A stretch of 36,351 nucleotides of DNA from Escherichia coli (GTDB lineage Bacteria; Pseudomonadota; Gammaproteobacteria; Enterobacterales; Enterobacteriaceae), in the NCBI RefSeq assembly GCF_017348835.2, contig NZ_CP072313.1, one strand, 5' to 3'. The notes beneath the pieces were generated by a model. That model had not been told where the DNA came from. It did no database searches and saw only the letters and a list, made by a program, of their open reading frames with translations. Below, piece after piece: positions 80 through 33,700 of the stretch. Both the position numbers and the translations under genes were made by a program. Numbering within the stretch: position 1 is the stretch's first letter; the number at the start of each line of letters is the position of its first letter.

Positions 80-391
80 TCATGGTAAATCACCACAACC
101 GAGAGGACAGCAATCGCGATCAAAGCCGTGACAACAATAGCCATTGGCATAGCCGTTGCGTATCTCTTCAGCAATCTCTTTCGCAGAAAGATAATCAAAT
201 TCCTTGCGAGCCAGTTCAAACGCCTGGGCGTGTTGTTCTTCCGGCAATCTGGCGACAACTTTATCAATCGCAGCACTCAAACGACGTTGGTATAGCTCAA
301 AAACAAGACCACAACCAGGCATGATCTCTTTTGATAAAATATCCAGTTCTGAGAGAAATTTTTCACTATCAAAAGTATCCATCATCTTCAC
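80..391 (-). CDS. hypothetical protein (103 aa), Cys-rich C-terminus; first gene of the putative leading-region island
   Basis: ORF in the track, same orientation as the neighbouring small genes; no family recognised by eye. Confidence 0.45.
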   Translation of the reverse strand: MKMMDTFDSEKFLSELDILSKEIMPGCGLVFELYQRRLSAAIDKVVARLPEEQHAQAFELARKEFDYLSAKEIAEEIRNGYANGYCCHGFDRDCCPLGCGDLP

Positions 392-430
392 CTTCGTAAG
401 TTACCTGACATTATTTCTGCATCAGTTAAT

Positions 431-454
431 AACAGGGGCTATTAAGCCCCTGTT
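431..454. terminator. perfect hairpin AACAGGGGCT-ATTA-AGCCCCTGTT between two minus-strand genes (terminator or attenuator candidate)
   Basis: 10-bp inverted repeat read directly; flanked by A/T-rich sequence. Confidence 0.3.
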
Positions 455-458
455 ATAT

Positions 459-692
459 TTATTTTCCTTCTATAGCGATTCTTCTAAGCTCATGAAGGAT
501 ACAAGCCGTTTGATCTACCAGATTTTCGTCATGAATGATGTTTTCTGCTATTAACTCGTTAAACGCTACGACCAGAAAATATGACTCTCTATAAACGTCA
601 TCCTGATCAAATTCTGCCGCTCTATACTTTGAATAGATGATAATGCCGCGATCTTGAATTTTCTGAATTTGCTTAATCACTTCTGAAGTCAT
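459..692 (-). CDS. hypothetical protein (77 aa), first gene downstream of module A1 promoter
   Basis: ORF in the track; start codon preceded on the minus strand by the conserved GGACAGGAGA Shine-Dalgarno shared by all three modules. Confidence 0.5.
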   Translation of the reverse strand: MTSEVIKQIQKIQDRGIIIYSKYRAAEFDQDDVYRESYFLVVAFNELIAENIIHDENLVDQTACILHELRRIAIEGK

Positions 693-1123
693 TTTTAATC
701 TCCTGTCCGTTTGGACTTAAGAAGGAAAGGAGCCTGTCCCCTTTCGATGAAACAATAATACATCTATTTGGATGTATCATCAAGATTTCTGGCCTGAAAA
801 ACGGTAAATTATTTGGTGGTTGCACGCTTTTTATCCGCGCCAGCGGATGGAAGGGGCGAACGAAAAAACCAGGGGAGCACAAGAGCCACATCGCCCCGGG
901 GCGCGGCAACGCCGCTACTGTTATCAACCGGAACCAGGGATACCCTCCCGCCCTGCTAAGCCCGACTGACTCACAGACAACGATGACGCTGATTTGCGCC
1001 GCAGAATGCCGCAGTTAGCGCTCGCGCCAGCGAGTTTACGCCGTCCAGGGTTTACTTGGACGGGGCGCTGTACTGCGCGTGTGAGCGTCAGCGAGCTACG
1101 GGTGCAACACACCAGAAGTTAAA
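693..1123 (+). repeat. type-A module copy 1: conserved 5'UTR plus promoter plus about 300-bp GC-rich structured element
   Basis: aligns along its length with 2453-2866 and 4523-4950; GC-rich core also matches 21376-21657; contains hairpins ATCCGC-GCCA-GCGGAT and CCGTCCAGG-loop-CCTGGACGG. Confidence 0.8.
755..783 (-). promoter_or_regulatory. sigma70-type promoter of module A1 (-35 TTGATG, 17-bp spacer, -10 TATTAT on the minus strand)
   Basis: hexamers read on the reverse complement; near-identical promoter repeated at 2515-2543 and 4585-4613; A/T-rich UP-like sequence just upstream. Confidence 0.55.
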
Positions 1124-1409
1124 CCGCTCTTAATATGGTTTGCATTAAAATCTTTCTTGACGAATCCTCATTAATATCACACTTGAAGGAAATTATTTTT
1201 ATTGCTCTCTTTTTCAGAGCGCTTTTTATTTGAACTGTTGATAATAAATCCTTGTAAATCGGATGAAGATAAACCCCATATTTATCTTCAAAAGCTCTAT
1301 CAATTTTTGATGCATTCATAATAGCATCAAAACAATTATCATCATCCACAGGGCAAGCTGTCCAAAACATCATTTCAACAGCCATTTTCTTAGCTTCATT
1401 AATCATCAT
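1119..1409 (-). CDS. hypothetical protein (96 aa)
   Basis: ORF in the track; its stop codon lies inside the conserved 3' end of element A1 (CCAGAAGTTAA). Confidence 0.5.
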   Translation of the reverse strand: MMINEAKKMAVEMMFWTACPVDDDNCFDAIMNASKIDRAFEDKYGVYLHPIYKDLLSTVQIKSALKKRAIKIISFKCDINEDSSRKILMQTILRAV

Positions 1410-1470
1410 CCCCCCTTTTATTACTTAAGGCGACTATAGTTACATATAGCACTTTTGTCTCAATATATGA

Positions 1471-1497
1471 AGGGGCGGAAATGCCCCTTTTTATTTA
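1471..1497 (-). terminator. hairpin AGGGGC-GGAAAT-GCCCCT with adjacent T/A runs (terminator candidate, possibly bidirectional)
   Basis: inverted repeat read directly; followed by TTTTTATTT on the plus strand. Confidence 0.3.
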
Positions 1498-1632
1498 AAA
1501 CATTTCATACCCTTGCAAGTAGTTTAACCACCACCGAAATTGATCCCACTCACTAAACGTCATTGCTGGAATTCTGGTTTCCCAGCCTTTGACAAGAGAA
1601 TCAGCAAGCTGTACGATCTGCCGAGTTGACAT
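1495..1632 (-). CDS. small hypothetical ORF (45 aa, MSTRQIVQLADSLVKGWETRIPAMTFSEWDQFRWWLNYLQGYEMF), not in the ORF track
   Basis: ATG preceded by GAGG about 8 nt upstream on the minus strand; too short for the 60-aa track cut-off. Confidence 0.3.
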   Translation of the reverse strand: MSTRQIVQLADSLVKGWETRIPAMTFSEWDQFRWWLNYLQGYEMF

Positions 1633-1710
1633 TTAAAAACCTCATTATTCAGTTTTGATTGTCGATAACGTGATCAGGTTGGTGGAACAACCTGATCACA
1701 CCTTGAATAG

Positions 1711-2076
1711 TCAGTCATTACCCTCCTTCTTTTCTATAGTTACTGTGTATCCGTAAAGGGTCAAAATGCGATAAGCATCCAACGCCTCACGCTCACTTTT
1801 AAATGTTCTGACTTCGTGTAATCCATTACCTTTATCAAGGGATACACAAAACTCATAATCTTCTTCTACTTCTATCTTTTTAATTAATTTATCAAGTTCG
1901 GCTAATGTTCGTTTTGGCTCAAAAAGAAATGTGCATTGTACAATGGCGTTTAAACCTTCCCGATCAAGCTCTAACAGAGCATCATTATAAGCAGCTTTAA
2001 AACAGCGATTATTACGCAGATCAGATGCAAACTGCATTGCGGCTTGTTTTAACGTTTTCATGAATTTCCCTTGCAT
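1711..2076 (-). CDS. hypothetical protein (121 aa)
   Basis: ORF in the track; co-oriented with module genes; followed by a 12-bp inverted repeat (GTGATCAGGTTG...CAACCTGATCAC) at 1669-1697. Confidence 0.5.
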   Translation of the reverse strand: MQGKFMKTLKQAAMQFASDLRNNRCFKAAYNDALLELDREGLNAIVQCTFLFEPKRTLAELDKLIKKIEVEEDYEFCVSLDKGNGLHEVRTFKSEREALDAYRILTLYGYTVTIEKKEGND

Positions 2077-2152
2077 TGATGTTAATAGACAATTTCAGAA
2101 TCAATATTGAAATTTCCAGAAAATGCAGGGTTCCCCCCTGCATTTATAATGC

Positions 2153-2452
2153 TTAACGAAGGCACTCAATAAAATCTTTAAAACTCAAGCATTCATCGCC
2201 ATCTTTTAACGAATCAAAATATTTTTCATATTCGTCCCTATAGAAAAGGACTAAATCAACATCACTCTGCTTAAGTTCGCCAAACTGAGGAACAATTCCG
2301 GTTTTATAGTCACGAATTTTATTGTTATCAGTAAATATGACAACATACTGTTGTCCCGTATCTTTATGGATAAGGGCAATAGTGCAAAGTGTTACTCGTT
2401 CTAATGTGAAAACATAGTTTGTGGTTGAGGTAAAAACAGGTGAGCATTTCAT
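2153..2452 (-). CDS. hypothetical protein (99 aa), first gene downstream of module A2 promoter
   Basis: ORF in the track; preceded by the conserved 5'UTR and Shine-Dalgarno of the type-A module. Confidence 0.5.
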   Translation of the reverse strand: MKCSPVFTSTTNYVFTLERVTLCTIALIHKDTGQQYVVIFTDNNKIRDYKTGIVPQFGELKQSDVDLVLFYRDEYEKYFDSLKDGDECLSFKDFIECLR

Positions 2453-2866
2453 TTAAAATCTCCTGTCCGTTTGGACTTAAGAAGGAAAGGAGCCAATCCC
2501 CTTTCGATGAAACAATAATACATCTATTTAGATGTATTATCAAGATTTCTGGCCTGAAAAACGGTAAATTATTTGATGATTGCACGCTTTTTATCCGCGC
2601 CAGCGGATGGAAGGGGCGAACGAAAAAACCAGGGGAGCACAAGAGCCACATCGCCCCGGGGCGCGGCAACGCCGCTACTGCTATCGACCGGAACCTGGAC
2701 CACCTTCCCCGTCCTGCTAAGCCCGACTGACTCAAAGGCAACGATGGCGCTGATTTGCGCCGCAGAATGCCGCAGTTAGCGCTCGCGCCAGCGAGTTTAC
2801 GCCGTCCAGGAAAACCTGGACGGGGCGCTGTACTGCGCGTGTGAGCGTCAGCGAGCTACGGGCGCA
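2453..2866 (+). repeat. type-A module copy 2
   Basis: near-identical to 693-1123 and 4523-4950; hairpin loop variant CCGTCCAGG-AAAA-CCTGGACGG. Confidence 0.8.
2515..2543 (-). promoter_or_regulatory. sigma70-type promoter of module A2 (-35 TTGATA, 17-bp spacer, -10 TATTAT)
   Basis: same architecture and near-identical sequence as 755-783. Confidence 0.55.
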
Positions 2867-3113
2867 ATTGCTCATTGATTTCGTTGTGCGTCATGTTGCC
2901 CCTTTTACAAAGGACGTATTCAGGGTGTTCTCCAGCAAGCAATAACAGATACTCAAATTCACCTTTTGACAAATTTAATTGGTTGTGGGTTTTTGCTTCC
3001 TTTTTCTGCCATGTACTTAAGCCTACGCCAAAAATTTCACCGCATTCTGTCTGGGTAAGGCCAATTTTTTTACGTAATTTCTTTATGTTTTCCGGTGTAT
3101 TTTCAATAGTCAT
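2856..3113 (-). CDS. XRE-family helix-turn-helix DNA-binding protein (85 aa), possible antitoxin or regulator
   Basis: HTH signature IKKLRKKIGLTQTECGEIFGVGLSTWQKKE; start overlaps upstream gene by 4 nt; stop codon lies in the conserved end of element A2. Confidence 0.6.
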   Translation of the reverse strand: MTIENTPENIKKLRKKIGLTQTECGEIFGVGLSTWQKKEAKTHNQLNLSKGEFEYLLLLAGEHPEYVLCKRGNMTHNEINEQLRP

Positions 3114-3364
3114 GTTTCATTCTCCTTATATTCTTTCATCATGGTTAAAAGAATACTCTTATCAACAGGTTTTAAACCATTTTTTGTAAAATCTATTGCC
3201 CCAACTTCATTTTCATTAAAAACCAGTTCGCTTAACGTTCTCTTTGTCGTTTTAGTTTTTCCTTCTGTGTACACCTTTGAATAGCTGCTTATTTTTTTTA
3301 CAAAATGATATTTTTCATCAATCATTTCAAGATAATAAGTCAATCGCCCTTTGTTTTTTCTCAT
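3110..3364 (-). CDS. hypothetical protein (84 aa), translationally coupled to the HTH gene
   Basis: ORF in the track; 4-nt overlaps at both ends (3361-3364 and 3110-3113). Confidence 0.5.
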   Translation of the reverse strand: MRKNKGRLTYYLEMIDEKYHFVKKISSYSKVYTEGKTKTTKRTLSELVFNENEVGAIDFTKNGLKPVDKSILLTMMKEYKENET

Positions 3365-3903
3365 AACTGTTTCAAATATCCTGTAATTTTAACAAGTTGA
3401 TCTATGTTCAAGCCCCGAATCTGCAAATCATAACGCTCGCCCTGTTTGATGACTTTACCGTTCAATCCGTTTTCAACTTTAAAGCCTGTCAATGCCCCAT
3501 ACCAGCTTTCAAGCTGGACAAGTTGCGATAACATACCTTTCAGGATCAGAATTTCGTCCTTTTTTACCTCCTGGCTTTTCTCATACTCAATCGCCTGTAA
3601 CACCTCCTGCGAAGCATTTATCAGAATTTTTCGCTCGATATCGGCTGCTATATCAACGGGATTCCGCTTCCTAGATAACGTGCAAACATGATGCGGACTA
3701 CGCCAGGAACGACTGTCCACACTCCCCACAACAGAAAATCGCTCTTTTTCCATCCGAATATGCACGGAGTAATTTTTAAACTGCGGTGATGTCAGTTTTA
3801 TACGAGACGGACAATCATCAAGTTTGTTCACGCGCCAGCCGTTCCCCAAGATACGGCAGACAACTTCAAAGACAGGGTGATATTGTTCAAAAAAAGAGTT
3901 CAT
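3361..3903 (-). CDS. hypothetical protein (180 aa), first gene of a three-gene operon
   Basis: ORF in the track; no family recognised. Confidence 0.5.
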   Translation of the reverse strand: MNSFFEQYHPVFEVVCRILGNGWRVNKLDDCPSRIKLTSPQFKNYSVHIRMEKERFSVVGSVDSRSWRSPHHVCTLSRKRNPVDIAADIERKILINASQEVLQAIEYEKSQEVKKDEILILKGMLSQLVQLESWYGALTGFKVENGLNGKVIKQGERYDLQIRGLNIDQLVKITGYLKQL

Positions 3904-4006
3904 CTGTTTTCCTTTTTGCTACGTGGCAGCTGTTCCCGTCTTTTGGGGTTCGATGCCCTAAAAGACGAGCTGGTTATGATATCGGGGGCTTCTGCCCCCG
4001 TTCCGG

Positions 4007-4522
4007 TTACGCTCTGTTTTCCACGCGTTGCCACCCTGTCGCCCTGCGCTGTCCAGTCGTACCGTATTTTGCGCGGATTTCTTCTATCGTGTGTTCTTCA
4101 CGATTCCAGTAACGTTTATGTTCTTCTGGACGATAAAACCATTGTTTTTTCTTTGCCGCCCATTTACACCCGATTTCTTTTAAAGTTTCTTTATGTGTAA
4201 TGGTATCTCCACTAATCCAGACCCAGTTACCTATAACTTCAAATACCAGACCTGATAAACCAGAAAGAACGTTTAATACTTTTTCCAGGTCGTCACCGTA
4301 ATTATATCGAGAATGTTCATCAGTGCTCTGAAACTGATTAATTTTATCGATGTTAGCCATGAGAAAATCAAAAGCTGCATTTACCGCTTTCATCAGTTCA
4401 GCCCCTAAAGGATTACGATCTGGATGATATTTTAACGCAGCTTTTCTGTATGCTGCTTTGATATCTTTTTCGGTTAATTCACCGGATAACCCAAAAACAT
4501 TTAACGCTTCCTGGATATTCAT
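4007..4522 (-). CDS. J-domain (DnaJ-like) protein, 171 aa, first gene downstream of module A3 promoter
   Basis: N-terminal J-domain with the invariant HPD motif (AAYRKAALKYHPDRNP); C-terminal part unrecognised. Confidence 0.7.
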   Translation of the reverse strand: MNIQEALNVFGLSGELTEKDIKAAYRKAALKYHPDRNPLGAELMKAVNAAFDFLMANIDKINQFQSTDEHSRYNYGDDLEKVLNVLSGLSGLVFEVIGNWVWISGDTITHKETLKEIGCKWAAKKKQWFYRPEEHKRYWNREEHTIEEIRAKYGTTGQRRATGWQRVENRA

Positions 4523-4950
4523 TTCAAATCTCCTGTCCGTTTGGACTTAAGAAGGAAAGGAGCCAATCTCCTTTCGATGAAACAATAATACATCTATTTG
4601 GATGTATTATCAAGGTTTCTGATCTGAAAAACGGTAAATTATTTGATGATTGTCACGCTGTTATCCGCGCCAGCGGATGTAAGGGGCGAACGAAAGTTCC
4701 AGGGTAGCACAGGAGCCACATCGCCCCGAAGCGCGGCAACGCCGCTACTGTTATCAACCGGAACCAGGGAACACCCTCCCGCCCTGCTAAGCCCGACTGA
4801 CTCACAGACAACGATGACGCTGATTTGCGCCGCAGAATGCCGCAGTTAGCGCTCGCGCCAGCGAGTTTACGCCGTCCAGGGTTTCCCTGGACGGGGCGCT
4901 GTACTGCGCGTGTGAGCGTCAGCGAGCTACGGGCGCAACACGCCAGAAGT
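4523..4950 (+). repeat. type-A module copy 3
   Basis: near-identical to 693-1123 and 2453-2866. Confidence 0.8.
4585..4613 (-). promoter_or_regulatory. sigma70-type promoter of module A3 (-35 TTGATA, 17-bp spacer, -10 TATTAT)
   Basis: same as the promoters at 755-783 and 2515-2543. Confidence 0.55.
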
Positions 4951-5104
4951 TAAGCAGCCCTCATTGGCATCCCCACGACCTGAAGGACGTGGGGTTACGT
5001 CGCATTTGACAGGGATTCCCCATGTAAATCTTAAAGATTCCTGTTGAACATCTTAAATACTTCTGTAGTATACCTATAGTAATTACCTAACAGGGGAGAC
5101 AGTA

Positions 5105-5770
5105 ATGGCTATTTATGCAATATCAATATCAAAAGGTGGGGTGGGAAAAACCACATCTGCTGTACATATAATCGATGAAATAAAGCCTGACGTTGTTTTC
5201 GATCTGGATTTACACCACAGCCTGAGCATAATTAACAGACTGCGACCAGCTGAAAAAAAATGGTCAATAGTGACAGTTTCAGACAAAGCAGAATTGCTCA
5301 CATATCTGAAAAAAATAAATGACGAAGGAAAAACGGCAGTTATCGACTGCGGGGGGTTTGATGCTGATATTAACCGCATCGCTATAGCTGTTGCTGATGT
5401 GATCATCGTTCCGGCAAATGACGATGTTACTGAGCAGATCGGACTTGCCACCTTCGATGCCGTCCTCGCCGAAATATCCAGACAAACAGGCAGAAATATA
5501 CAGGCCCATGTTCTGATGTGTAAAACACAACCTAATCAGAAAAACTTCCCTGATATGGACGATACAATGAAAAAGGTTAAACATATGGCGCTACTGAACG
5601 CTCGCTTATCATATCGTAAAGGACGCTATGGTTTTACCGATTCTTTGCGTAAAGGAATGGGGATAACCCAAATTAAGCATGGTCGTAGTTCACAGGCAGG
5701 ACGAGAAGTTATAGAGCTTGTAAAAGAATTACGCGCTTTATCTTCAGATAACACAGGTTTTCCTGCATAA
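5105..5770 (+). CDS. parA: ParA-family partition ATPase (small ParF-like)
   Basis: deviant Walker A box KGGVGKTT near the N-terminus; followed by a small RHH-like gene; GGAG Shine-Dalgarno. Confidence 0.8.
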   Translation: MAIYAISISKGGVGKTTSAVHIIDEIKPDVVFDLDLHHSLSIINRLRPAEKKWSIVTVSDKAELLTYLKKINDEGKTAVIDCGGFDADINRIAIAVADVIIVPANDDVTEQIGLATFDAVLAEISRQTGRNIQAHVLMCKTQPNQKNFPDMDDTMKKVKHMALLNARLSYRKGRYGFTDSLRKGMGITQIKHGRSSQAGREVIELVKELRALSSDNTGFPA

Positions 5771-5842
5771 ACCCCAAGAGAACCTTAAAGAAACACAAAG
5801 GATTTACCATAGATATCTTAAGGATTCATAAAGGATTTCCGC

Positions 5843-6082
5843 ATGAAAAACAAGCAATCCATTTTTGATGCCGCTCTCAATATTGGTAACGAAGCGCCTT
5901 TACAGGTAAAAAACGAAACGCCAAAACAACGGACGGTCAGAACAAAAACACTAAAAGCCATACCGACAAGATATTTTGATGCACACCTGAAATTAAGAGA
6001 AACAAATAAAACGAATCTCGATTTTTCCAATTACATAATGGAAGCACTACGGGAAAAACTGGAAAAGGATGGCGGACTTTAA
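5843..6082 (+). CDS. ParG-like ribbon-helix-helix centromere-binding protein (79 aa)
   Basis: position directly after parA; basic N-terminal tail and C-terminal RHH-like segment (NLDFSNYIMEALREKLEK). Confidence 0.55.
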   Translation: MKNKQSIFDAALNIGNEAPLQVKNETPKQRTVRTKTLKAIPTRYFDAHLKLRETNKTNLDFSNYIMEALREKLEKDGGL

Positions 6083-6236
6083 ATCTAAAGGGAACACCCA
6101 GGAAACACTTAGGATATCTGACGGAACCCCCATGTATTTCCATAAGTGTTTTTCGGGGTGCAAGCATCGTTCTTGCATTACAGTATTTCATGAACTACAA
6201 TGTAGTAACATACCTACCAGTATTTGAGGCAAGAAT

Positions 6237-6907: not shown

Positions 6908-7031
6908 TATACCTTCCCTTTTTTAGATGCTGCAAGATTACACAAAGAACACAAAAGGAATACAAAGGATTTCCATAAGACATCTATAGAATTCCTTTTA
7001 GGAATCCAATAAAAATCCCAGCGACGACACA

Positions 7032-7193: not shown

Positions 7194-7300
7194 TTTTTAA
7201 TTCTCCGCAACAATACGAAATCATATAGTAATTTACTATATGATTTATCTTTGGCAAGTAATTAACTTATCTGATTTCTTCCATTGGTAAGGGGGCTTTT

Positions 7301-7554
7301 GATGTCGCGCCAGCGACATGTAAGGCGGTACGCTGTGGTTACATGTGGAACTGGAGTAAAACCGCCGAAGCCCGGCGTAAGCCGGTACTGATTGATAGAT
7401 TTCACCTTACCTATCCCCATCCTGCTAAGCCATACCCGCTTTCAGCCATGACGGAGTTTCTGTGCGCGGTCGGAGTGGTCCCGACAAGGGTTTACCCGAA
7501 GTCGGGGCGTATCTCCGCGTTAGCGGGCCGTTAGGGCCGCTTACGAGCGTGTAT
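7301..7554 (+). repeat. type-C structured element copy 1; inverted partner at 35981-36235
   Basis: about 95% identical to the reverse complement of 35981-36235; shares the 5' hairpin and CTGCTAAGCC core with types A and B. Confidence 0.8.
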
Positions 7555-8148: not shown

Positions 8149-9204
8149 CTAGTGGGGTGGAGAAGCTGTCAGGGCCAGTTCAAGCTGACGTAGATCCCTG
8201 GCTACCAGTTGCTCTAATCTTTCTTTAGTGCACCAGTACGCTTCGTCCGGCGACATACGCTTCAGAATAAACCGTGCAATTTCGTTTCGCTGTTCATCAT
8301 ACGGCAGTTTTGCAAGGCGATTGGCACGTTTGCGCTTTGCTGCTTTCTCTCGTCGGAACTTGATGGCATCGAGAGAACGCTGCGCATACCAGCGTTTACG
8401 AGCCGAGTGAACAGAGATTTCCTCGCCCTCGCGGATAACGCCTTCTTTAATCAGTTGCAGACGGATTTCACTTTCTGCAAGGCGCTTACGTTGCTGTTCC
8501 TGAAGTTTCACCAGATCAACTCCCAGCATTTTCCAGCCAGTTTCGGTGATCCAGACGTATTTCGGCAGTCGCTGGCGGGATTCACGGTCCCATATCGTCT
8601 TTTCTGACGTTCCCAACGTGCCAAAGGAAACCTGCTCTGCCAGCAGACGGGAAAGGCGCGATACTGTGACTGCGGTTTCAGGAATAACGTTTCCCTTACT
8701 GTCTTTTGGGCTTATTTCTTCTGCCAGGCGGGAGACAGACATGCCGACAGTGTGCAATCCACGATCACAAAAACTCACAAGTACAACCCATATTGCGTCA
8801 AGCAGCCGCTGTTTCTCCGGTCGGAATTTATATTTGCGACCGACACTCTGACGTTTCAGTACATAAAATGGATGCAACGACATATGCATTCTGAGTGTGT
8901 ACTGACCAGTGACCGGGTCTTTTTTAACGAGACGATTGTAAGCGTGGCCCAACTGTCCGCCCAGCGCCTTATAGCTGTCGGGACGGAACCAGGCTGGATT
9001 CTCACACTTTGGCTTAGTGGAATGTTCACCACGGCGGCGCTTCGTGCTCCGTTTTTCCGGTTCAACCAGAAATGACGTGGCCCTGCCCGATTCGTAATCC
9101 TCCCAGAAAAGGATTTGCTCTTCGGGAGACAGTTCACTCCAGTGTAATGAAGGCCTGTTCAGGGAAGCCATAAGCAATCGCTTATGGCAGAGCTTGATTC
9201 GCAC
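8149..9204 (-). CDS. repA: plasmid replication initiator RepA (IncFII/IncI-complex RepA family)
   Basis: overall resemblance to RepA1/RepZ-type initiators; GTG start at 9204, alternative ATG at 9171; terminator and DnaA box downstream, antisense-RNA-like hairpin upstream. Confidence 0.7.
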   Translation of the reverse strand: MRIKLCHKRLLMASLNRPSLHWSELSPEEQILFWEDYESGRATSFLVEPEKRSTKRRRGEHSTKPKCENPAWFRPDSYKALGGQLGHAYNRLVKKDPVTGQYTLRMHMSLHPFYVLKRQSVGRKYKFRPEKQRLLDAIWVVLVSFCDRGLHTVGMSVSRLAEEISPKDSKGNVIPETAVTVSRLSRLLAEQVSFGTLGTSEKTIWDRESRQRLPKYVWITETGWKMLGVDLVKLQEQQRKRLAESEIRLQLIKEGVIREGEEISVHSARKRWYAQRSLDAIKFRREKAAKRKRANRLAKLPYDEQRNEIARFILKRMSPDEAYWCTKERLEQLVARDLRQLELALTASPPH

Positions 9205-9264
9205 AGTGCATTTTTACACCGGACGATATTGAATAATGAGGAAAGCATCATGTATACTGTCTTC

Positions 9265-9346
9265 CAAGGGATTTCCCCTGCCCCCATTAAACTTTGATCG
9301 GCCTCTGCCAAGAAACGGATGCAAAGTTAATGGGGGTTTGTTTTTT
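9265..9346 (+). ncRNA. candidate antisense copy-control RNA (CopA/Inc-RNA-like) in the repA leader
   Basis: plus-strand promoter -35 TTGAAT (9229-9234), 18-bp spacer, -10 TATACT (9253-9258); 15-bp stem (9281-9296 with 9322-9336) followed by T-run 9337-9346. Confidence 0.45.
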
Positions 9347-10315: not shown

Positions 10316-10600
10316 ATGTCACAAGCAAAAGCAAACCTGAAGAAATTACGTCATCACTGTTATATTCCACCAAAACAAAAAATATCCAGACTGTATTATG
10401 TTGAAAAAGCCTTAAGTTCTCCCTGGATATATCGTGAACGGCCTGCATACAGAGCAGAGTTGCTACTTACACATGACACACTGCTTGTTATTTATGGCCT
10501 GGCAAAATCCGGCCTGATTGACCGTTCTGAGGAATCACTCAACAGAGAAATCAAAGGGGTCCGAAAAGCGCTCGCAGCCGGACGTTTCCGTTGGTCGTGA
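10316..10600 (+). CDS. hypothetical protein (94 aa) upstream of the T4SS
   Basis: ORF in the track; stop codon immediately followed by element B1. Confidence 0.45.
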   Translation: MSQAKANLKKLRHHCYIPPKQKISRLYYVEKALSSPWIYRERPAYRAELLLTHDTLLVIYGLAKSGLIDRSEESLNREIKGVRKALAAGRFRWS

Positions 10601-10799
10601 GATGCCGCGCCAGCGGCATGTAAGGCGGCACTCTGTACTTAAATATGGCTTTGCGGGTTATCCGCCGAAGCCCCGCGCCAGCGGGTACTGTCTTCTATAT
10701 TCTCTGGAACTGCGCTCGCGCCCCCTGCTAAGCCCAAAACGCACGGAACCAACAGCTACACGGTTGTTTCTGGTCGAAGACCGACACTGCTGAAGCGAT
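10601..10799 (+). repeat. type-B structured element copy 1
   Basis: hairpin ATGCCGC-GCCA-GCGGCAT, then TAAGGCGG, CCGCCGAAGCC, CTGCTAAGCC, TTGTTTCTGGTCGAAGA; starts at the stop codon of the upstream gene. Confidence 0.8.
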
Positions 10800-14965: not shown

Positions 14966-14974
14966 CTGTCTCTG

Positions 14975-15175
14975 TAGCATGCCGCACAAGCGGCATGTAA
15001 GGCGGCACTCTGTACTTTAATATGGCTTTGCGGGTTATCCGCCGAAGCCCCGCGCCAGCGGGTACTGTCTTCTATATTCTCTGGAACTGCGCTCGCGCCC
15101 CCTGCTAAGCCAAAACCGCACGAAACCAACAGCCACGCGGCTGTTTCTGGTCGAAGACTGACAATCTTAAAGCGA
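14975..15175 (+). repeat. type-B structured element copy 2
   Basis: hairpin ATGCCGC-ACAA-GCGGCAT and downstream conserved blocks; sits between virB4 and virB5. Confidence 0.8.
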
Positions 15176-26198: not shown

Positions 26199-26786
26199 AT
26201 GTACCTACATATTGTCCCTAAACTTTTTCATCGCATGGCGAACAAATGCACTCTAAAATCCATCTCCATACCTGAACTTGATTTAATAATTGATGGCGAA
26301 TCATTGTCTGTAGGGAGGCCGTGGCCTAACAAATGTTTGTGGGTTGGAATGCGGAAAAGCAGAAAGGCAGTTAATGGACTTCTTTTGCATACAGATAAAA
26401 AACTAAGATGGTTCACTACCAGATATACCTGGGATATTGAAGATATGGGATTAATTCATCATCAGGTTAATACTTATATTGAAGATAATGAATTTGATAT
26501 GGTATCACAGGAAATTCTCTTAAATGGTTCTTTTGATAAGTGGAGTGACAGGGTGCATTCAGCTTATGAAGGTAAGCCTCCAGCAATAATCCAGCCCAAA
26601 ATGGAATCATTTTTAAAAAGACCAGGTGAAGACAGTCATGATATGTGGGAGGAGTTCGAGTGGGGTAACTTCCTCATATCAAGAGAAGAAAGCCTTTTAC
26701 TTCACACTATTCAGTCTGAACGATTGAATACAGATTGTTCTTTATTCAAAAGACAACCGTCTATTGAAAGTGCATTAGTTATATAA
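26199..26786 (+). CDS. hypothetical protein (start taken at ATG 26199; the ORF track starts at TTG 26169)
   Basis: AGGAAA Shine-Dalgarno 8 nt before the ATG; no family recognised. Confidence 0.5.
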   Translation: MYLHIVPKLFHRMANKCTLKSISIPELDLIIDGESLSVGRPWPNKCLWVGMRKSRKAVNGLLLHTDKKLRWFTTRYTWDIEDMGLIHHQVNTYIEDNEFDMVSQEILLNGSFDKWSDRVHSAYEGKPPAIIQPKMESFLKRPGEDSHDMWEEFEWGNFLISREESLLLHTIQSERLNTDCSLFKRQPSIESALVI

Positions 26787-26810
26787 ATCAGATACTCTTT
26801 GGTGGTTATT

Positions 26811-27386
26811 ATGCAATATGCATTGTTTGATGGATTTGAACGAAAGTTTTTGCTGGATGCTCTTGAATTTGGTGTTCTGAAGGACTGGAAAAAAAATCCG
26901 GTAAAAGAACTTCCTGATATTGATGAATCTGTTCACCCCTTCCATGTCTGCTATGGTGGATATTTATTAAATCCTAGTGTTTCAGATTCTGATATTAGCA
27001 GAAAAATAAAAGACCAGACAGGATTCTGGCTGGCAGCTATTGATGACACCCGCATGGATTGTCATTCAATAGCTTATTATGATATTCACACACTCCCTAT
27101 GATTTCGTGTGGTCATCAGAAGATAGTTCCTTTTGCCGCGTTAATAAAAGCTGATGAATGCATCATTTCAAAAATTGCTTCGTATTCTGGTTTTGCTGTA
27201 ACAGCCTTTTTGAGAATTAAAGACTGGGATATTGCAACTAATATACTTAACCGTGAGGGAATTTTTGCCTTTAATGGCTGTGAGCGCAGATTCAAACAAC
27301 CTGTAAGTGAAGATAACTGGCAACAGGAAGTATCAGAAGAACGCGCTATCCGTTGTGCCAAAAGATTAATTCAATGTAAAGGATAA
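26811..27386 (+). CDS. hypothetical protein (start taken at ATG 26811; the ORF track starts at TTG 26799)
   Basis: GGTGG Shine-Dalgarno 5 nt before the ATG; ends 4 nt before topB. Confidence 0.5.
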   Translation: MQYALFDGFERKFLLDALEFGVLKDWKKNPVKELPDIDESVHPFHVCYGGYLLNPSVSDSDISRKIKDQTGFWLAAIDDTRMDCHSIAYYDIHTLPMISCGHQKIVPFAALIKADECIISKIASYSGFAVTAFLRIKDWDIATNILNREGIFAFNGCERRFKQPVSEDNWQQEVSEERAIRCAKRLIQCKG

Positions 27387-27390
27387 CAAA

Positions 27391-29553
27391 ATGAAACTTT
27401 TTATTGCAGAAAAACCCGCAGTAGCAAATGATATTGTTAAGGCTCTTGGGGGCAATTTCACCCGTCATGATGGCTGGTTTGAAAGTGATAATGCCATTGT
27501 GACTAACTGCTTTGGTCATATTATCGAATCACAGCCACCGGAAAACTATAATCCTGATTACAAAGCCTGGAAAGTTGAAACACTCCCTTTACGTCTTTAC
27601 CCCGTCAAATATCAGCCAGTAGAAAGTGCCGCAAAGCAGGTTAACACAATTCTTGAGCTTATCAGACGTGGAGACGTGACTGAAATTGTTCATGCTGGCG
27701 ACCCTGATGAAGAAGGTCAGCTACTTGTTGATGAAGTTCTGGAATATGCGGGGAACACAAAACCCGTTAAGCGCGTTCTGATTAACGACAACACGCTTCC
27801 GGCAGTGAAAAAGGCACTGGCAAATCTTAAAGATAATCGTGATTTCAAAGGGCTTTACCTTAAGGCGCTGGCGCGTTCAGTTGCTGATGCCGTCTATGGC
27901 TTCTCTATGACGCGTGCTTACACAATCCCGGCAAAAACTAAAGGCTATAAAGGTGTTTTGTCTGTCGGACGGGTCCAGACACCCGTGCTTGGCCTGATTG
28001 TGAATCGTACCCGCGCTAACCAGAACCATAAATCCAGTTTTTACTACACCATGACCGGAGTCTTTCAGCGTGGTGCTGATGTTATCAGGGCGAACTGGAA
28101 GCCAGGGGAATTTGCTCCGCTGACAGACCGTAAATTACTTGATAAAGCGTGGGCAGACGGAACGGCAGCATCCCTTGCAGGAAAACCGGCTACAGTTGAA
28201 GCGGCAGCAACTGATGATAAAAAAACGGCTGCGCCGTTGCCGTTTAACCTGGTCAGACTCCAGCAATACATGAACAAGAAGTTCAAAATGACGGCACAAA
28301 AAACGCTGGATATTACGCAACAACTACGCGAAAAATATAAAGCAATTACTTATAACCGCTCTGATTGCTCATATCTTTCTGATGAACAATTCAGCGAAGC
28401 GCCGCAGGTTATCGATGCCCTGAAATCAGTCTTTCCTCAGTCGCTGGATATTGATTCTGCACGTAAAAGCAAAGCGTTTAACAGTGCAAAGGTGACTGCG
28501 CATACTGCGATAATCCCGACCGCCAGTGTGCCTGATGTTAACGCACTCAGCACCGACGAGCGCAATGTTTACCTGGCGATCGCACAACACTATCTTGTTC
28601 AGTTCATGCCTGAAAAAGCATACCAGGAAGTATCGGTTGCCATTCAGTGTGGTGATGAGTCGTTCTATGCCCGTGCCAGAAAAACAACTGACAGCGGATT
28701 TGAGGCGTTTCTTGGCGCGGAAACCACAGACGAAGGTGAATCAGAAGATAATGATGATTCCGCTTTTGAACAGCTTTGCAAAATTCGCACTGGTGAAACA
28801 CTGACAACAAAAGAAGTTGTTGTTAATGAGAAGAAAACAACACCGCCGCCGTTATTCACCGAAGCCTCCTTGCTTGCTGCGCTTGTTCGTGTCGCGGATT
28901 TTGTCACTGATCCAGTGATTAAAAAATTACTGAAGGATAAGGATAAAGACAAAAAAGATGAACATGGCGGTATTGGTACGCCAGCTACACGCGCTGCCAT
29001 TCTGGAAGCGCTGAAGAAGAGAAATTATATCACGCTGGAAAAAGGGAAACTTATTCCGACGGATACCGGATGTGCGCTTATTGATGCCCTACCAGGTATA
29101 GCGGTTAATCCTGATATGACAGCATTATGGTCTGAAAAACAGTCTGCCATTGAAAATGGCGACCTGACGGTTGAACAGTTTATTAATGATCTGTACGGTG
29201 AACTGACAGGCATGATTTCTGATGTTGACCTGGGCGAAATGAAAATTGAACCCGCAGCGCCAGCCGGACAATCTCCACGCCTGAGTTCTCCCTGCCCTTC
29301 CTGTGGTAAAGCGATTATTATCAGACCAAAAGGTTATTTCTGTACAGGATGTGAATTTAAAATCTGGAAAAATTTTTCTGGTAAAGCATTATCCGATAAG
29401 CAAGTGGAAACACTTGTTACAAAAGGTATTACCGGAGAATTAAAAGGATTTGTTAGTTCAAAAACGAATAAGAATTTCTCGGCTAAGGTTAAACTTGTTG
29501 ATAAAACGGCCGGAAAGCTGGGATTTGAATTTACCCACAAAAAATCAATATAG
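27391..29553 (+). CDS. topB: DNA topoisomerase III (TopB)
   Basis: 720 aa; Toprim-type N-terminus MKLFIAEKP; C-terminal zinc-ribbon Cys pairs (CPSCGK...CTGCEFK). Confidence 0.9.
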   Translation: MKLFIAEKPAVANDIVKALGGNFTRHDGWFESDNAIVTNCFGHIIESQPPENYNPDYKAWKVETLPLRLYPVKYQPVESAAKQVNTILELIRRGDVTEIVHAGDPDEEGQLLVDEVLEYAGNTKPVKRVLINDNTLPAVKKALANLKDNRDFKGLYLKALARSVADAVYGFSMTRAYTIPAKTKGYKGVLSVGRVQTPVLGLIVNRTRANQNHKSSFYYTMTGVFQRGADVIRANWKPGEFAPLTDRKLLDKAWADGTAASLAGKPATVEAAATDDKKTAAPLPFNLVRLQQYMNKKFKMTAQKTLDITQQLREKYKAITYNRSDCSYLSDEQFSEAPQVIDALKSVFPQSLDIDSARKSKAFNSAKVTAHTAIIPTASVPDVNALSTDERNVYLAIAQHYLVQFMPEKAYQEVSVAIQCGDESFYARARKTTDSGFEAFLGAETTDEGESEDNDDSAFEQLCKIRTGETLTTKEVVVNEKKTTPPPLFTEASLLAALVRVADFVTDPVIKKLLKDKDKDKKDEHGGIGTPATRAAILEALKKRNYITLEKGKLIPTDTGCALIDALPGIAVNPDMTALWSEKQSAIENGDLTVEQFINDLYGELTGMISDVDLGEMKIEPAAPAGQSPRLSSPCPSCGKAIIIRPKGYFCTGCEFKIWKNFSGKALSDKQVETLVTKGITGELKGFVSSKTNKNFSAKVKLVDKTAGKLGFEFTHKKSI

Positions 29554-29684
29554 TATCTAATGACACGTCTGAAGTATCCGATTAACCAGGGGTGGTTTGT
29601 CGACTTTAGATTGTGCCATATATGGAGTTGTTAGAAGAAAAGGGACTTCCTCCGGTCGGAGCCACCAACTCAAGGCCGGAAAAC

Positions 29685-29716
29685 AAAAAAGCCCGATTAC
29701 CAGTCGGGCTTTTTTG
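29685..29716. terminator. bidirectional rho-independent terminator between convergent topB and relaxase genes
   Basis: AAAAAA-AGCCCGA-TTACCAG-TCGGGCT-TTTTTT; works on both strands. Confidence 0.6.
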
Positions 29717-29723
29717 TTTCTGA

Positions 29724-32700
29724 TTAACGGGACCGCGTGTTATCCCTGTTTCTTTCCCGTTCACGCTCATTTTTCAAAGCGTTGTCATAACTCACTATTT
29801 CACGCTTCACGGCCTCTACCGTTTCAGGTTTTTTCATTGCTGCCTTGAGATCGTTTACATCCTCAAAACGTATGAATTTGAGCGTATCTTTGACTGTTTG
29901 TTTGTCAATATTCATTTCCTTCGCCAGTTGCTTAGAAATTCGCTCAATTTCTCTTTCCATCGCTTTTTCACTATTGACAGTCCGCTTTTTCTTTTCTGTA
30001 GTATTCTCGTTTTTTTCCTCGACTGATTTAGCTTTTTTCTGCCCTTGTTGTTCCTCAAAGGCTTTAATCTGTTCATTAATCGTCTGAGCACGGGCCGAAA
30101 TACTGTTAACCCCTTTCGAAAGCAGATCAACCTCTTCTTTCGGCGCACCATTTTCTACAGCTTCATTCAGTAAACGCTGGGCTTCCTGGTGCTGGCTGGC
30201 AATAACTTTTGCCTCTTCCTGTAGCTGCTGTAGCGATGCGTTATTTTGCTGATGAGGATTTTCAGTGGCTAACGCGGATTTGCTTTGCTCATCTCCGGTC
30301 TGTTTATCCTGACCAGTAGTCACGTCTTTCTCTGTTACCGGCTTCTGTTGCTGCGCTTCTTGTGGCTGCTGCTCGCGTTCTTCAGAATGAGCCGAAACGT
30401 TCTGCTGCACAGACTCCTGTTTTTCCGCTTCCTGTACCACGGATGTTTCAGACGTGGATTTTTGAGAAACAGTTTCTGACTTAACAGGCTGTTCCGGCAC
30501 TGCATCACGCGATTTATCATCATTATGTACAGATTCCGCTACTTCGGGCGTTCTTTCCTTAGCCTGGGTGTCTTTCTCGACTGAATTAACCTGCTCTGCT
30601 CTCTTTTCCTGCTCCTGTTCTGGTTTCTGTCCGGCGACTTGTTGCTGACGCTCTGCCTCGACGCTGTTTTCATGTCCATGTTCAGCTTTCAGTTCCTGGA
30701 GGCGGACCTGCATCATTTCATGATATTTTTCAGGTCGCAGAATAACATTCATCCCCTTCTCGGCTGCCGCCATTGCACAGGCTACCTTAAATTCTTCCGA
30801 GCCATTGAGTTTCAGCATCCCACCAAATTTCTCTTTTGCATAAAGAAGGGCTGCTTCAGCTTTATCCTGGGTAATTTCACCATTTACACGAACATGATTT
30901 CCTTTATCAGTGAAAACAGTCTGTGTTGTCTTCGGATCAAGGTAACGCGTTTCTTTTGGGCTGACCTTATGAGGAACAAGATCGGTTAGTTCACGTTTTA
31001 CATAATCCTGAACTTGCTGGGATTGCTGTACTCGCTTAACTACGCTGAAAACTTCCTTTTCATTACCGGAAGAAATGCTGTTTCCATCAACCGGATTACG
31101 GATTATCTTTTTTAAAGAATCACCTAAAGCCATATCATATCTCCTGTCTGGATTCCAACGGTGATAGTATGAGTTTATTTCGCGAAAACATGCCTTTCGA
31201 ATTGAGTTTATTTCACTCTCTCTTTCCAGCTTTTTAAATATAATGTACCCTCTAGCAACCTCCCGTTCCTGCTTGTTTCTTATCGCCAGAAGCCCTCTGA
31301 GTTCTGCCCTGTAATTAGCTATATTATCATTATGCTTATATTTAATCTCATTATTTACCCAACCTTTATGTTCATTTAAACAAATAAATCTTTCTTTTGC
31401 CTGTTGACGCGTAAGATTTACACGGGTAATAACAGCATCAAAAGGTTTGTTATCTTTCTGATCCTGCCAGATATCAAGTAATACCTCTTTTGCCTCATCC
31501 CATTCAAGATTCAGATGTTTAGTTAAAAAATCACTGGCATTCATATTTCGATTGCCAACTCTGAAACGCGGAGATCCATCCTGTCCATAGGTGACAGTAT
31601 GCTTTGATGGATCTATGTTAAAGCGTGTTTGCAGATTGGACAAATAACGTTCAGCATTAATTTCTGTGCGAATTTGTTTCAAAAAAGGTAAATCATCACT
31701 GCGCTGAATCGCCGCTTTAATATTTGATTCAAGCGCTGACTGAACTACTCTTCTTCCTGCTCTATCCTGCAACCGTCGCACATATCGATCTGGATCGACT
31801 TTTTGTCGTCCAGCCGTTGATAAATAACCGTATTCATTTTGCTGCAATAACAACTGAGATTTATTAATGCTTTTCCCACCTGATCTTCCGTGAAGTCCGT
31901 AAACCAGTTTGCGTGCTGGCAGACGTGGCAATCCGATTGTCTTACCGGATACAAACTTTCCGGTATTGTATTTAATACCGGACTGGTCACTATTCTGTCG
32001 TCGGTCCTGTCTTTGAAGGTTGTGTTTTTCGTCATAACGATTAATTACCTTTTTCAGATACATTTGCTTATCTTCACCAGCAAGTGCTGCATATTCTTTA
32101 CGAATTTTTTGCCCTGCCGGATGAATATGTTTTATCTCATGACTGATCGAACTCTTCCAGTCTTTCAGATGACTCTCAATCTGCGTCTTTGTGGGTTTTA
32201 AAAGTGGTATAGTTCGATCAGAGATATACTGACGTGAAAATAAAGGGCTTTTGAGTCGAGTAAATTTAGAGTCTCCTTCGAGCTTCACACCAAAGTAGCG
32301 ATCAGACTTCCCCTTATTATACTCCTTTACCTCACCAAAACGGGAAAGATAATCAGAAAATTGTTTCTCTGTTCGGATATTCTCTGTATCCAGCGCATCA
32401 AAAACCGTGGTTTTAAACTCACTGTGCCGCTCACGGTAAAAATCGCCTTTAGCCCTGGATAATACATTAGCGTGGTTATGGTCACTGACTCTGACACCAT
32501 CTTTAGGAGAAACAAGATTGTATTTATTATTAATGTGCTCCTGTATGGCATCAAGATGTTTCAAATAATGGTTAATAACTCCCCCAGGATTTAGTTTATT
32601 TCCTGTCACCAGATTAACTTCAGGGATAACAATGTGAATGTGAGGCTTACGCTCAACCATTTCTCCTGTTTTATGATCAGGCATCTGTTTTATTTTTGGA

Positions 32701-33011: not shown

Positions 33012-33409
33012 TTATTAATCCCTGCAACAAACGCATCACGAATATTAACAAGAACATTAAGATAGCGTAAATATGTACTTTCTGAAATAAAACCATTGCG
33101 ATATTCTGTGTTAATTTTTTTGGCTATCTGATTAATATTATTGCTTGACTTATTAAAAAGTCTGAGTAATTCTCTGTATTCAACTGGACGTTTTTGTTTC
33201 AAAGTCGGAATATCATCCAGACGATTCAGTATAACCATCCGAAAAAACTCACTACGACTGACTTCAAGAGATGTAAAATACTCATGAAATGACTGATATT
33301 CCTCATCAGTCAATCGCAGTGATATCACATGTTTTCTCTCCACCTTTGATGTGGAAGCTACAGCCTTTTTTCCTTTGTCTTGTTTTTTCATGGTTCGTAG
33401 AACCTCCAT
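33005..33409 (-). CDS. relaxosome accessory protein (TaxA-like, probable RHH DNA-binding)
   Basis: small basic protein immediately upstream of and overlapping the relaxase gene; start may be at ATG 33391. Confidence 0.6.
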   Translation of the reverse strand: MEVLRTMKKQDKGKKAVASTSKVERKHVISLRLTDEEYQSFHEYFTSLEVSRSEFFRMVILNRLDDIPTLKQKRPVEYRELLRLFNKSSNNINQIAKKINTEYRNGFISESTYLRYLNVLVNIRDAFVAGINKC

Positions 33410-33560
33410 ATAGCGACCTGGTTGTAGAGATATACTGGGGTATTAGGGGGAGATCCCCCTAAGCACGTCGATTATACCGGAATTTATTCCGTGTATACAT
33501 CGCTGTCGTGCCTGTGTCTTGTAGTAAGATCAATTGAACAAGTCACAAGCCCACATTACA
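33410..33560. other. putative origin of transfer (oriT)
   Basis: intergenic between divergent relaxase operon and stb-like genes; perfect inverted repeat TTAGGGGG-AGAT-CCCCCTAA at 33443-33462; second repeat CGGAAT-TTA-TTCCG nearby. Confidence 0.5.
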
Positions 33561-33700
33561 ACCTACACAACAACCCACACACAAAAGCATGAAGCCCACA
33601 AAACAACCCACACTTAAACCCACAAAAAAGACCACAAAACCTATTGACAACCCACACAACACCCCACATAATCACCCACACTAACGAAAAGCAAATTGAT
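33545..33700. repeat. array of about 9 CCCACA-containing direct repeats at about 10-12 bp spacing
   Basis: CCCACA recurs (agCCCACAtt, caaCCCACAcac, agCCCACAaaa, aaCCCACActt, aaCCCACAaaa, ...), upstream of the StbA-like gene. Confidence 0.6.

Follow-up and report, generated by a model that had tools for sequence, protein, structure and literature searches.

CUP-type promoter cassettes in the leading region of an IncI2/IncX-like plasmid of Escherichia coli contain a dispersed, structured core that resembles G4-type priming signals

In IncN and IncN2 plasmids, the operons of the leading region are headed by CUP repeats, which carry a promoter and an ArdK-binding site (PMC5371602, PMC6289460, PMC3490853), and ArdK is known to bind the CUP promoters (PMC6289460, PMC5371602). 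According to the papers that cite Delver and Belogurov, the CUP-controlled regulon in pKM101 and R46, both of them IncN plasmids, dates to 1997 (PMC5371602, PMC6289460, PMC3490853). Here, we describe three cassettes at the beginning of a stretch of 36,351 nt from Escherichia coli (contig NZ_CP072313.1), the full length of which is called the window throughout. Judging from their sequence, they make up a regulon of the CUP type, and the plasmid that carries it in its leading region is IncI2/IncX-like. The GC-rich part of each cassette contains a core of ca. 140 nt that is repeated around the plasmid and resembles the priming signals of phage G4 and its kind.

The cassettes are direct repeats of ca. 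440 bp (~689-1130, 2449-2870, and 4519-4960), each of which terminates at the ATG of an open reading frame (ORF) on the minus strand (692, 2452, and 4522). They are composed of blocks of 261, 103, and 53 nt that are 88 to 100% identical (the 261-nt block is 94% and 88% identical to the reference and the 103-nt block 96 to 100%), with a mean column identity of 93% over the aligned cassettes. Read along the minus strand, the order is a GC-rich part of ca. 300 nt, an AT-rich stretch, a promoter, a leader of ca. 55 nt, GGAG, and the ATG. The G+C content is 61 to 63% in the GC-rich parts, 35 to 40% in the cargo genes, and 43% in the plasmid. The parts of the three modules are as follows.

826-1130, minus strand: GC-rich element of module 1 (61% G+C), with the 140-nt core at 826-968 and a CUP-specific extension at 969-1130; on the plus strand, 833-848 form the terminal hairpin of the core (ATCCGC-TGGC-GCGGAT), and 952-962 are the motif CCTGCTAAGCC.
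783-755, minus strand: promoter of module 1 (TTGATG-17-TATTAT), with a palindrome at 758-777 and the AT-rich stretch upstream at 784-825.
693-748, minus strand: leader of module 1, with two conserved hairpins and the Shine-Dalgarno sequence GGAG.
2586-2870, minus strand: GC-rich element of module 2, with the core at 2586-2729; its distal end contains the stop codon of the upstream helix-turn-helix gene.
2543-2515, minus strand: promoter of module 2 (TTGATA-17-TATTAT), with a palindrome at 2518-2537 and the leader at 2453-2508.
4659-4960, minus strand: GC-rich element of module 3, with the core at 4659-4799.
4613-4585, minus strand: promoter of module 3 (TTGATA-17-TATTAT), with a palindrome at 4588-4607 and the leader at 4523-4578.

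An initial annotation of this DNA had proposed three tandem modules of element plus promoter, and the repeats, promoters, and leaders all confirm them. The near-consensus sigma-70 promoter that it described, TTGAT[G/A]-17-TATTAT, is found in all three. The leader and Shine-Dalgarno sequence, reported there as identical, are nearly so, but three to four positions differ among the modules. Taken together, sigma-70-like sites are no more frequent in the region than chance would give (12 versus 10.6 expected), so the weight of the three promoters comes from their fixed position within the repeat and their retention in diverged copies. The promoter is kept at the equivalent place in an IncX4 copy that is 74% identical and in the CUPs of R46, and the hairpins of the leader keep their pairing through the changes found in IncX4 (GTCC-AAAC-GGAC versus GCCC-AGCA-GGGC). 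Matches to the cassette were found in 1173 plasmid records, mostly conjugative Escherichia plasmids of the size of IncI2 and IncX4.

In R46, too, there are direct repeats, located upstream of ccgAI, ardA, ccgD, and ardB. A profile made from the three cassettes and run against R46 (50 kb, or 100 kb with both strands) hit the CUPs only, with E values of 1.7e-5 to 4e-4 and with the same orientation and register as in the cassettes. When the IncI2 and IncX4 copies were included, this broader profile aligned over ca. 300 nt that begin in the distal GC-rich part and reach the -10 hexamer, and the E values for the R46 CUPs were 5.5e-8, 7.8e-7, and 2.1e-5 (nhmmer). The two systems share several direct repeats of 0.4 kb in the leading region, co-oriented toward the origin of transfer (oriT). 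In both, the GC-rich part precedes a strong sigma-70 promoter that has a palindrome as its operator, and the repeat runs on through a ribosome-binding site to the ATG of small genes that are unrelated to each other; ccgAII is common to both. With this homology (the R46 CUP hits and a CcgAII that is 53% identical) and a CUP regulon on record since 1997, the architecture was already known. The differences lie elsewhere. No ardA, ardB, ardR, ardK, ccgAI, ccgC, or ccgD was found in the window by tblastn with the R46 proteins. Without ArdK, the putative operator is ATACATC-N6-GATGTAT rather than the ArdK site, and the putative regulator is an XRE protein encoded within one of the cassettes. The cargo includes a conserved operon coding for a J-domain protein, proteins of 180 and 84 amino acids (aa), and a helix-turn-helix protein. 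The relaxase is MOBP, on an IncI2/IncX-like backbone, whereas R46 and pKM101 have a MOBF one. R46 has, in addition, a fifth copy of the core (32967-33091, plus strand), ca. 500 bp downstream of repA and facing the other way from the four CUP copies. Its sequence and those of the CUP cores are almost the same, and this suggests that the replicon-adjacent and cassette copies evolve in concert within R46.

The window is the whole circular plasmid to within a few bases. It is colinear with and 99.9% identical to the complete circular plasmid pMB9635_3 (NZ_CP103482.1), the record of which spans the junction between the end and the start of the window, so that the circularity on which the placement of the cassettes depended is borne out. 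RepA is of the IncI2 type, a VirB-type type IV secretion system (T4SS) is encoded on the plus strand, and by sequence, the backbone is IncI2/IncX-like with a MOBP relaxase.

8149-9204, minus strand: repA.
29724-33409, minus strand: operon of the MOBP relaxase (with an LPD7 domain) and a small relaxosome protein.
33409-33753, plus strand: oriT region, with inverted repeats at 33443-33466 and 33478-33500 followed by a putative nick region.

The intergenic region at 33409-33753 separates the relaxase operon from a TraL-like gene. On its plus strand, the inverted repeats precede ACATCGCTGTCGTG, and a nick-like sequence, ACATCGCTG/TCGTG (the slash marks the putative nick), is found at ~33498-33512. 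We take it to be similar to the R64 sequence ACATCCTG/TCCCG, and the nick position is one that we infer from this likeness. The nick consensus YATCCTGY had no match in the oriT intergenic region; in the window, it had 10 matches versus 3.1 expected, two of them within core copies (7418 and 36109). The relaxase operon, as a rule, enters the recipient last. Together with the nick-like sequence, this makes the plus strand the likely transferred strand, entering toward higher coordinates. In the direction of entry, the cassettes are then 3.7 to 7.5 kb past the putative nick, and the transferred strand would serve as the template for all the cargo genes. The same position adjoining oriT is seen in IncI2 and IncX4 plasmids. 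The placement in the leading region made by the initial annotation is thus supported, with the relaxase operon on the far side of oriT and the inverted repeat and putative nick on the plus strand.

The GC-rich element had been seen as an appendage of the modules, but its structured, strand-specific core is not confined to them. A core profile, built solely from copies in other plasmids, detected exactly ten copies in the window (E values of 6e-32 to 2e-6), 9 of them in one orientation, and there were no matches in the reversed window used as a control. The motif CCTGCTAAGCC or its variant CCTGCCAGGCC is found nine times on the plus strand and once on the minus strand. The layout of the core is GGCTTAGCAGG, a variable hairpin, YCGGCGG, a variable stretch, CCGCCTTCCAT, and a terminal hairpin; GGCTTAGCAGG followed after ca. 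100 nt by CCGCCTTCCAT and a hairpin makes a site signature that can be searched for. The copies outside the cassettes are the following.

7297-7440, minus strand: replicon core copy, 700 to 850 bp downstream of repA.
10599-10742, minus strand: promoter-less core of a 185-bp repeat family, between plus-strand T4SS genes.
14973-15121, minus strand: promoter-less core between virB4 and the next T4SS gene.
21374-21658, minus strand: fourth GC-rich element (core plus extension), without promoter or leader, between the plus-strand virB11 and the coupling-protein gene.
23733-23859, minus strand: promoter-less core downstream of the coupling-protein gene.
35657-35804, minus strand: promoter-less core.
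36094-36235, plus strand: the only core in the opposite orientation, within an inverted duplicate (252 bp, 95% identical) of the 7.3-kb replicon copy.

Four of these promoter-less cores belong to a direct repeat of 185 bp with copies that are 87 to 95% identical (10602-10786, 14979-15163, 23722-23907, and 35663-35848). They are antisense to the surrounding genes, and three of them lie between plus-strand T4SS genes. The inverted pair of 252 bp (7302-7553 and 35981-36232), with a core copy in each arm, brackets a segment of 7.4 kb that contains the three cassettes, parA, and a Phd/VapC pair; if the arms recombined, the leading-region island would be flipped with respect to the transferred strand. 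Outside these plasmids, a scan of contigs with a two-motif pattern gave 35 loci, of which ca. 30 were chance matches, near the number estimated by chance. The genuine ones were in Arsenophonus, Xenorhabdus, Pseudocitrobacter, and three contigs of metagenome-assembled genomes that resemble enterobacterial plasmids. In Xenorhabdus yunnanensis (~3940-4080), the core copy is followed directly by an R64-type oriT-like sequence, GGGGTGTCGGGGCGTTGCCCTGACC, an inverted repeat, and ACATCTGG, so that, by sequence, it would adjoin a putative nick region.

The core also resembles signals for primase. In phage G4, CCCTACTGCAAAGCC (containing CTGCAAAGCC) is located exactly at the annotated start of the primer, directly 3' of a stem-loop. 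In phage alpha3, which belongs to a different genus and has its origin in a different intergenic region, CTGCTAAGCC is found on the viral strand of the G-H intergenic region, directly after the hairpin GGAAGGCG-TTAGC-CGCCTTCC. The plasmid core has TGGAAGGCGG on the strand corresponding to the alpha3 hairpin, and in the IncI2 and IncX4 cassettes, the block reads CCTGCAAAGCC and carries exactly the G4 version, CTGCAAAGCC. The top match of the core profile in each of the two phage genomes was this very site (E values of 0.0018 in alpha3 and 1.5 in G4), oriented so that the plus strand of the window corresponds to the template. A BLAST search with the G4 origin gave only chance hits in plasmids and, among phages, only relatives of G4 at least 90% identical, so the link to the phages comes from the motifs and the profile matches.

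The same element of 140 nt is also found beside replicons, downstream of repA and a DnaA box in R100 (L043, ~10377-10531) and R64 (L042, ~2187-2341). In an IncI2 plasmid (L005, 15285-15429), it is 700 to 850 bp downstream of repA, the counterpart of 7297-7440 in the window. The orientation of these replicon elements is such that a primer would run away from repA. The G site of R1 and R100 described by Masai and Arai in 1989 and by Nomura et al. in 1991 is reportedly a G4-type signal, used by primase alone and located ca. 400 bp downstream of oriR. The copy at 7297-7440 is presumably the replicon G site (ssiA) of this plasmid. A mention of ssiA adjoining oriR1 can be found in the literature (PMC10989972). 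The cassettes share with the signals of G4, alpha3, and the IncFII G site their strand specificity and, in the predicted folds, the succession of stem-loops and unpaired CTGC[A/T]AAGCC on the template strand, and with the IncFII replicon of R100 and the IncI1 replicon of R64 a 140-nt element downstream of oriR, here downstream of repA. However, there are ten copies here, three of them fused to leading-region promoters, and two extra hairpins separate the start motif from the GGAAGGCGG helix. We found no mention of a relation between CUP and ssi in the accessible literature, which excludes the original papers on CUP and on the G site. By sequence comparison, the relation of the GC-rich core of CUP to G4-type signals and its dispersal on the transferred strand may therefore be new.

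Helices were counted at positions anchored on the motifs in 32 copies from 14 sources. The terminal hairpin occurs with six distinct, perfectly paired arm variants, and a long-range helix of 5 bp appears at the same anchored positions as GGCGG/CCGCC, GGGGC/GCCCC, GGCGA/TCGCC, and GGCTG/CAGCC. Compensatory changes in two helices are good evidence for a selected secondary structure. RNAalifold on a MAFFT alignment recovered almost no structure because the helices, being of unequal length, were misaligned, hence the anchored count. When the plus strand was folded as single-stranded DNA, the result was a series of stem-loops with the motif unpaired on their 3' side, as in G4.

The promoters, in turn, have features of a repressible switch. 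The palindrome ATACATC-N6-GATGTAT lies between the two hexamers, is found in the window only at the three promoters (0.09 expected), and is, from its sequence and position, probably the operator of a plasmid repressor. The candidate on sequence grounds is the XRE protein encoded by the last gene of module 3 (2856-3113). Its helix-turn-helix is identical here and in IncI2 plasmids, which have the same palindrome. In IncX4, both half-sites are changed symmetrically (ATACGAC/GTCGTAT), and the XRE orthologue has substitutions at several positions of the helices of the helix-turn-helix, including S to R. This covariation fits, without proving it, a role of the XRE protein as the repressor. The genes for the XRE protein and for the basic protein of 84 aa (3110-3364), both on the minus strand, overlap by 4 nt, and the helix-turn-helix matched the model of the MqsA antitoxin family (E value of 4e-7, below the cut-off). 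The pair could be a toxin-antitoxin-like module instead of, or besides, a regulator.

Putting the sequence evidence together, we lean, with modest confidence, toward the cassettes being a priming signal for primase fused to a repressible duplex promoter of the CUP type. The complement of the transferred strand should be made discontinuously and toward the nick, because the strand enters with its 5' end first. On the incoming strand, coated with SSB (the protein that binds single-stranded DNA), DnaG would start a primer at CCTGCTAAGCC in the core, and DNA polymerase III would extend it toward the nick, across the promoter and cargo genes that entered just before. With the core placed after the promoter and genes in the order of entry, exactly that module would be converted to duplex, and the sigma-70 promoter would be active once the stretch is double-stranded. 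In a recipient without the repressor, a burst of expression would follow, to be shut off later by the XRE protein (zygotic induction), a part of the model drawn by analogy with ArdK at the IncN CUPs. The structured leader, with its strong Shine-Dalgarno sequence, would be fused to whichever gene comes next. At the seven further cores, six of which have the same orientation, discontinuous synthesis would be primed along the remaining transferred strand; the other cores on this strand are 1.8 to 6.4 kb apart, from 35.7 kb round to 23.8 kb. That primase acts in this way during conjugation, which protein is the repressor, and in what order the events take place are points that we infer from sequence. 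The broader idea, that such prime-then-transcribe units and programmed Okazaki-type sites are a second, primase-based route of zygotic induction and strand conversion in IncN, IncI2, and IncX4, separate from the Frpo route of IncF and IncI1 that depends on RNA polymerase, is more tentative, and we would give it somewhat less than an even chance.

The nearest functional parallel would be a promoter that works on single-stranded DNA. Masai and Arai reportedly described the Frpo/ssi single-stranded DNA promoters of F and ColIb-P9 in 1997. These are also repeated, structured, non-coding elements upstream of leading operons, with the transferred strand as the template, and are tied to early expression and complementary-strand synthesis (PMC9849209; PMC12672017). 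The GC-rich element could, then, be Frpo-like, so that RNA polymerase would transcribe the folded transferred strand, and make a primer, before its complement exists, as with Frpo1/2 of F and ssi1-3 of ColIb. It is indeed long, GC-rich, structured, and upstream of leading genes templated by the transferred strand, and since several unrelated classes of single-stranded DNA promoters are known (PMC12672017), dissimilarity in sequence does not exclude a new one. Nevertheless, we consider this improbable. The similarity to Frpo1 and Frpo2 of F was not significant (blastn and nhmmer), no pair of -35 and -10 hexamers was found on the plus strand within any GC-rich element, and in the predicted fold of the plus strand the promoter forms a small hairpin of its own, unpaired with any distal arm from which a non-template strand could come. 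The promoter is complete, near consensus, and of the normal duplex type, and promoter-less copies occur at places with nothing to transcribe. The signal that the structured part resembles is one for primase, not for RNA polymerase. In F, the single-stranded DNA promoter is transcribed before conversion and delays the conversion of the leading region (PMC9849209; bioRxiv 10.64898/2026.01.09.698686), whereas the priming model implies the opposite, a prompt local conversion.

A different explanation is that the GC-rich element is duplicated replicon DNA that serves as a portable block of homology for the shuffling of cargo, with no role in conjugative priming; expression would then depend only on the duplex promoter and its repressor. 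Module 1 was found in only 2 of 1296 matching plasmid records, which is consistent with the gain of cassettes by recombination, and modules 2 and 3 are common to IncX4-type plasmids at ca. 87% identity. Loss of the CUP region by recombination between repeats has been proposed for IncN2 (PMC3490853, PMC5371602), and the near-identity of the R46 cassette cores to the replicon-adjacent copy is what gene conversion would give. However, the two helices with compensatory changes and an invariant motif of 11 nt point to selection on the element itself, 9 of the 10 copies have the same orientation, and roles in recombination and in priming are not mutually exclusive. Overall, we regard it as unlikely.

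Several observations weigh against a role in priming. The similarity to the phage origins consists of two short motifs only, and the start motif is ca. 100 nt away from the GGAAGGCGG helix instead of adjacent to it as in the phages. That the element of R100/R1 is the mapped G site (ssiA) is our assumption, and the placement of the nick is itself putative. In IncX4, there are only two cores, both within cassettes, so the dispersal around the plasmid is not general, and one copy in the window is inverted. Outside the replicon pair, 5 of 5 promoter-less copies share one orientation, a bias that may exist because effects on T4SS transcripts are avoided. The predicted folding energies of the cassette cores as single-stranded DNA were no better than those of shuffled sequences (z-scores of 0.01, 0.26, and -0.67). 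As to the strand that folds, one C.A pair favors the plus strand, whereas the first hairpin of R100, R64, and two other loci (L024 and L008) has G.T pairs on the other strand. With RNA parameters, folding favored the cargo-sense strand over the plus strand, which folded less well in 20 of 26 copies (mean difference of 4 kcal/mol; Wilcoxon p of 0.0025).

These strand preferences would suit an element that acts as RNA on the cargo-sense strand, be it a structured 3' end, an element that processes or stabilizes the RNA of the upstream operon, an insulator, or a small RNA, and each GC-rich element does come directly after the last gene of the upstream module. Yet with DNA parameters no strand difference is left, and G/T content is a confounder, so this test is not decisive. 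There was no Rfam family for the GC-rich element, either at the gathering score or at E values up to 5, and no terminator-like site coincides with it. For the promoter-less copies, which run antisense to T4SS genes, no promoter is apparent. To our knowledge, the replicon copies of R100 and R64 are in a region without a known transcript. An action as RNA thus appears very improbable to us, and a priming signal joined to a CUP-type promoter is the reading that we favor.

The genes carried by the modules were scanned with NCBIfam, PHROGs, and PADLOC (all ten proteins) and Pfam (six of them), as well as by tblastn with the leading-region proteins of R46. They are, in the order of their modules, the following.

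459-692, minus strand: 1a, 77 aa, acidic (pI 4.9); no match in NCBIfam, PHROGs, PADLOC, or Pfam.
80-382, minus strand: 1b, 100 aa, orthologue of R46 CcgAII (53% identical, E value of 3e-36), a protein with no function assigned.
2153-2452, minus strand: 2a, 99 aa; its C terminus matches phrog_2061 (function unassigned; E value of 2.7e-10).
1711-2061, minus strand: 2b, 116 aa; no match in NCBIfam, PHROGs, PADLOC, or Pfam.
1495-1632, minus strand: 2c, possible ORF of 45 aa, unannotated in the reference plasmid; no match in NCBIfam, PHROGs, or PADLOC.
1119-1409, minus strand: 2d, 96 aa; no match in NCBIfam or PHROGs and weak PADLOC matches (E values of ~1e-3).
4007-4522, minus strand: 3a, 171 aa, with an N-terminal J domain (residues ~5-60, with HPD) and a C-terminal domain that corresponds to phrog_15863 (function unassigned).
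3361-3903, minus strand: 3b, 180 aa; no match in these scans.
3110-3364, minus strand: 3c, 84 aa, basic; no match in NCBIfam, PHROGs, PADLOC, or Pfam.
2856-3113, minus strand: 3d, 85 aa, XRE-type helix-turn-helix.

Module 1 thus has two genes, module 2 has three annotated ones plus the possible ORF of 45 aa, and module 3 has four, in place of the one to three per module of the initial annotation. Its statement that they belong to no recognizable family holds for 7 of the 10 proteins, but not for the CcgAII orthologue, which the record of the reference plasmid already annotates as CcgAII, "CUP-controlled gene," nor for the J-domain and XRE proteins. Several cargo proteins are acidic (pI 4.6 to 5.3). 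The 180-aa protein belongs to a family found only in plasmids of Enterobacterales. Its AlphaFold model is a confident one, with a pLDDT of 90.8, and Foldseek found no solved structural relative (best E value of 0.046); the neighbors in the AlphaFold database are all uncharacterized, one of them labelled DUF1436.

The locus is also comparable to the leading-region anti-defence islands of Samuel et al. (2024, PMC11541004), with which it shares a location within a few kb of oriT, the use of the transferred strand as the template, and many small uncharacterized ORFs. However, a likeness to genes for anti-restriction, inhibition of the SOS response, or SSB, as had been suspected, did not emerge: none of the ten proteins matched families of anti-restriction, anti-CRISPR, SOS inhibition or PsiB, SSB, or methyltransferases in the scans described above, in contrast to the known islands. 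The family scans gave no match to housekeeping families either. An anti-defence role of the cargo is a guess from position alone.

Some other features of the plasmid deserve mention. The end of the window (36335-36351) partly repeats positions 1-17 (AGTGAGTG...) and then diverges, probably an assembly overlap at the point of circularization. The differences from pMB9635_3 are confined to 24753-29648, where 3.2 kb on the topoisomerase/Hha/H-NS side (26175-29384) are 93.9% identical and the flanks are rearranged, which suggests a recombinant segment coming from a related plasmid. Next to the relaxase gene, a match to the AgrB antisense RNA of Rfam (29631-29716, plus strand; 61.9 bits, E value of 2.7e-8) adjoins the place, at ~29.3 kb, where a DinQ-like type I toxin, DqlB, is annotated in the reference plasmid, and the two are probably a type I toxin-antitoxin pair. 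Just upstream of repA (9184-9341, minus strand), the repZ regulatory pseudoknot (RF01087) gave a match below threshold (30.6 bits for a gathering score of 44, E value of 0.006), which fits an antisense control of the initiator of the IncI/IncB type. Finally, three direct repeats of 49 nt, 61 to 73% identical (5779-5827, 6080-6128, and 6946-6994), flank a parA-like gene (5105-5770), an ORF of 79 aa, and the Phd/VapC pair; they could be repeats of a partition site or of an operator.

Should priming not be borne out, what is described here would be a further family of CUP-type promoter cassettes, useful for annotation and otherwise ordinary. The conserved early operon of four genes (J-domain, 180-aa, 84-aa, and XRE proteins) lends itself to functional study. 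The gene mcr-1 travels mainly on IncI2 and IncX4 plasmids, and carbapenemases are spread by IncN plasmids; we know of no Frpo elements in any of the three. If the cores are indeed primase signals, the priming of the incoming strand in plasmids that lack a primase of their own, and the early switch-on of leading genes without a single-stranded DNA promoter, would become directly testable.

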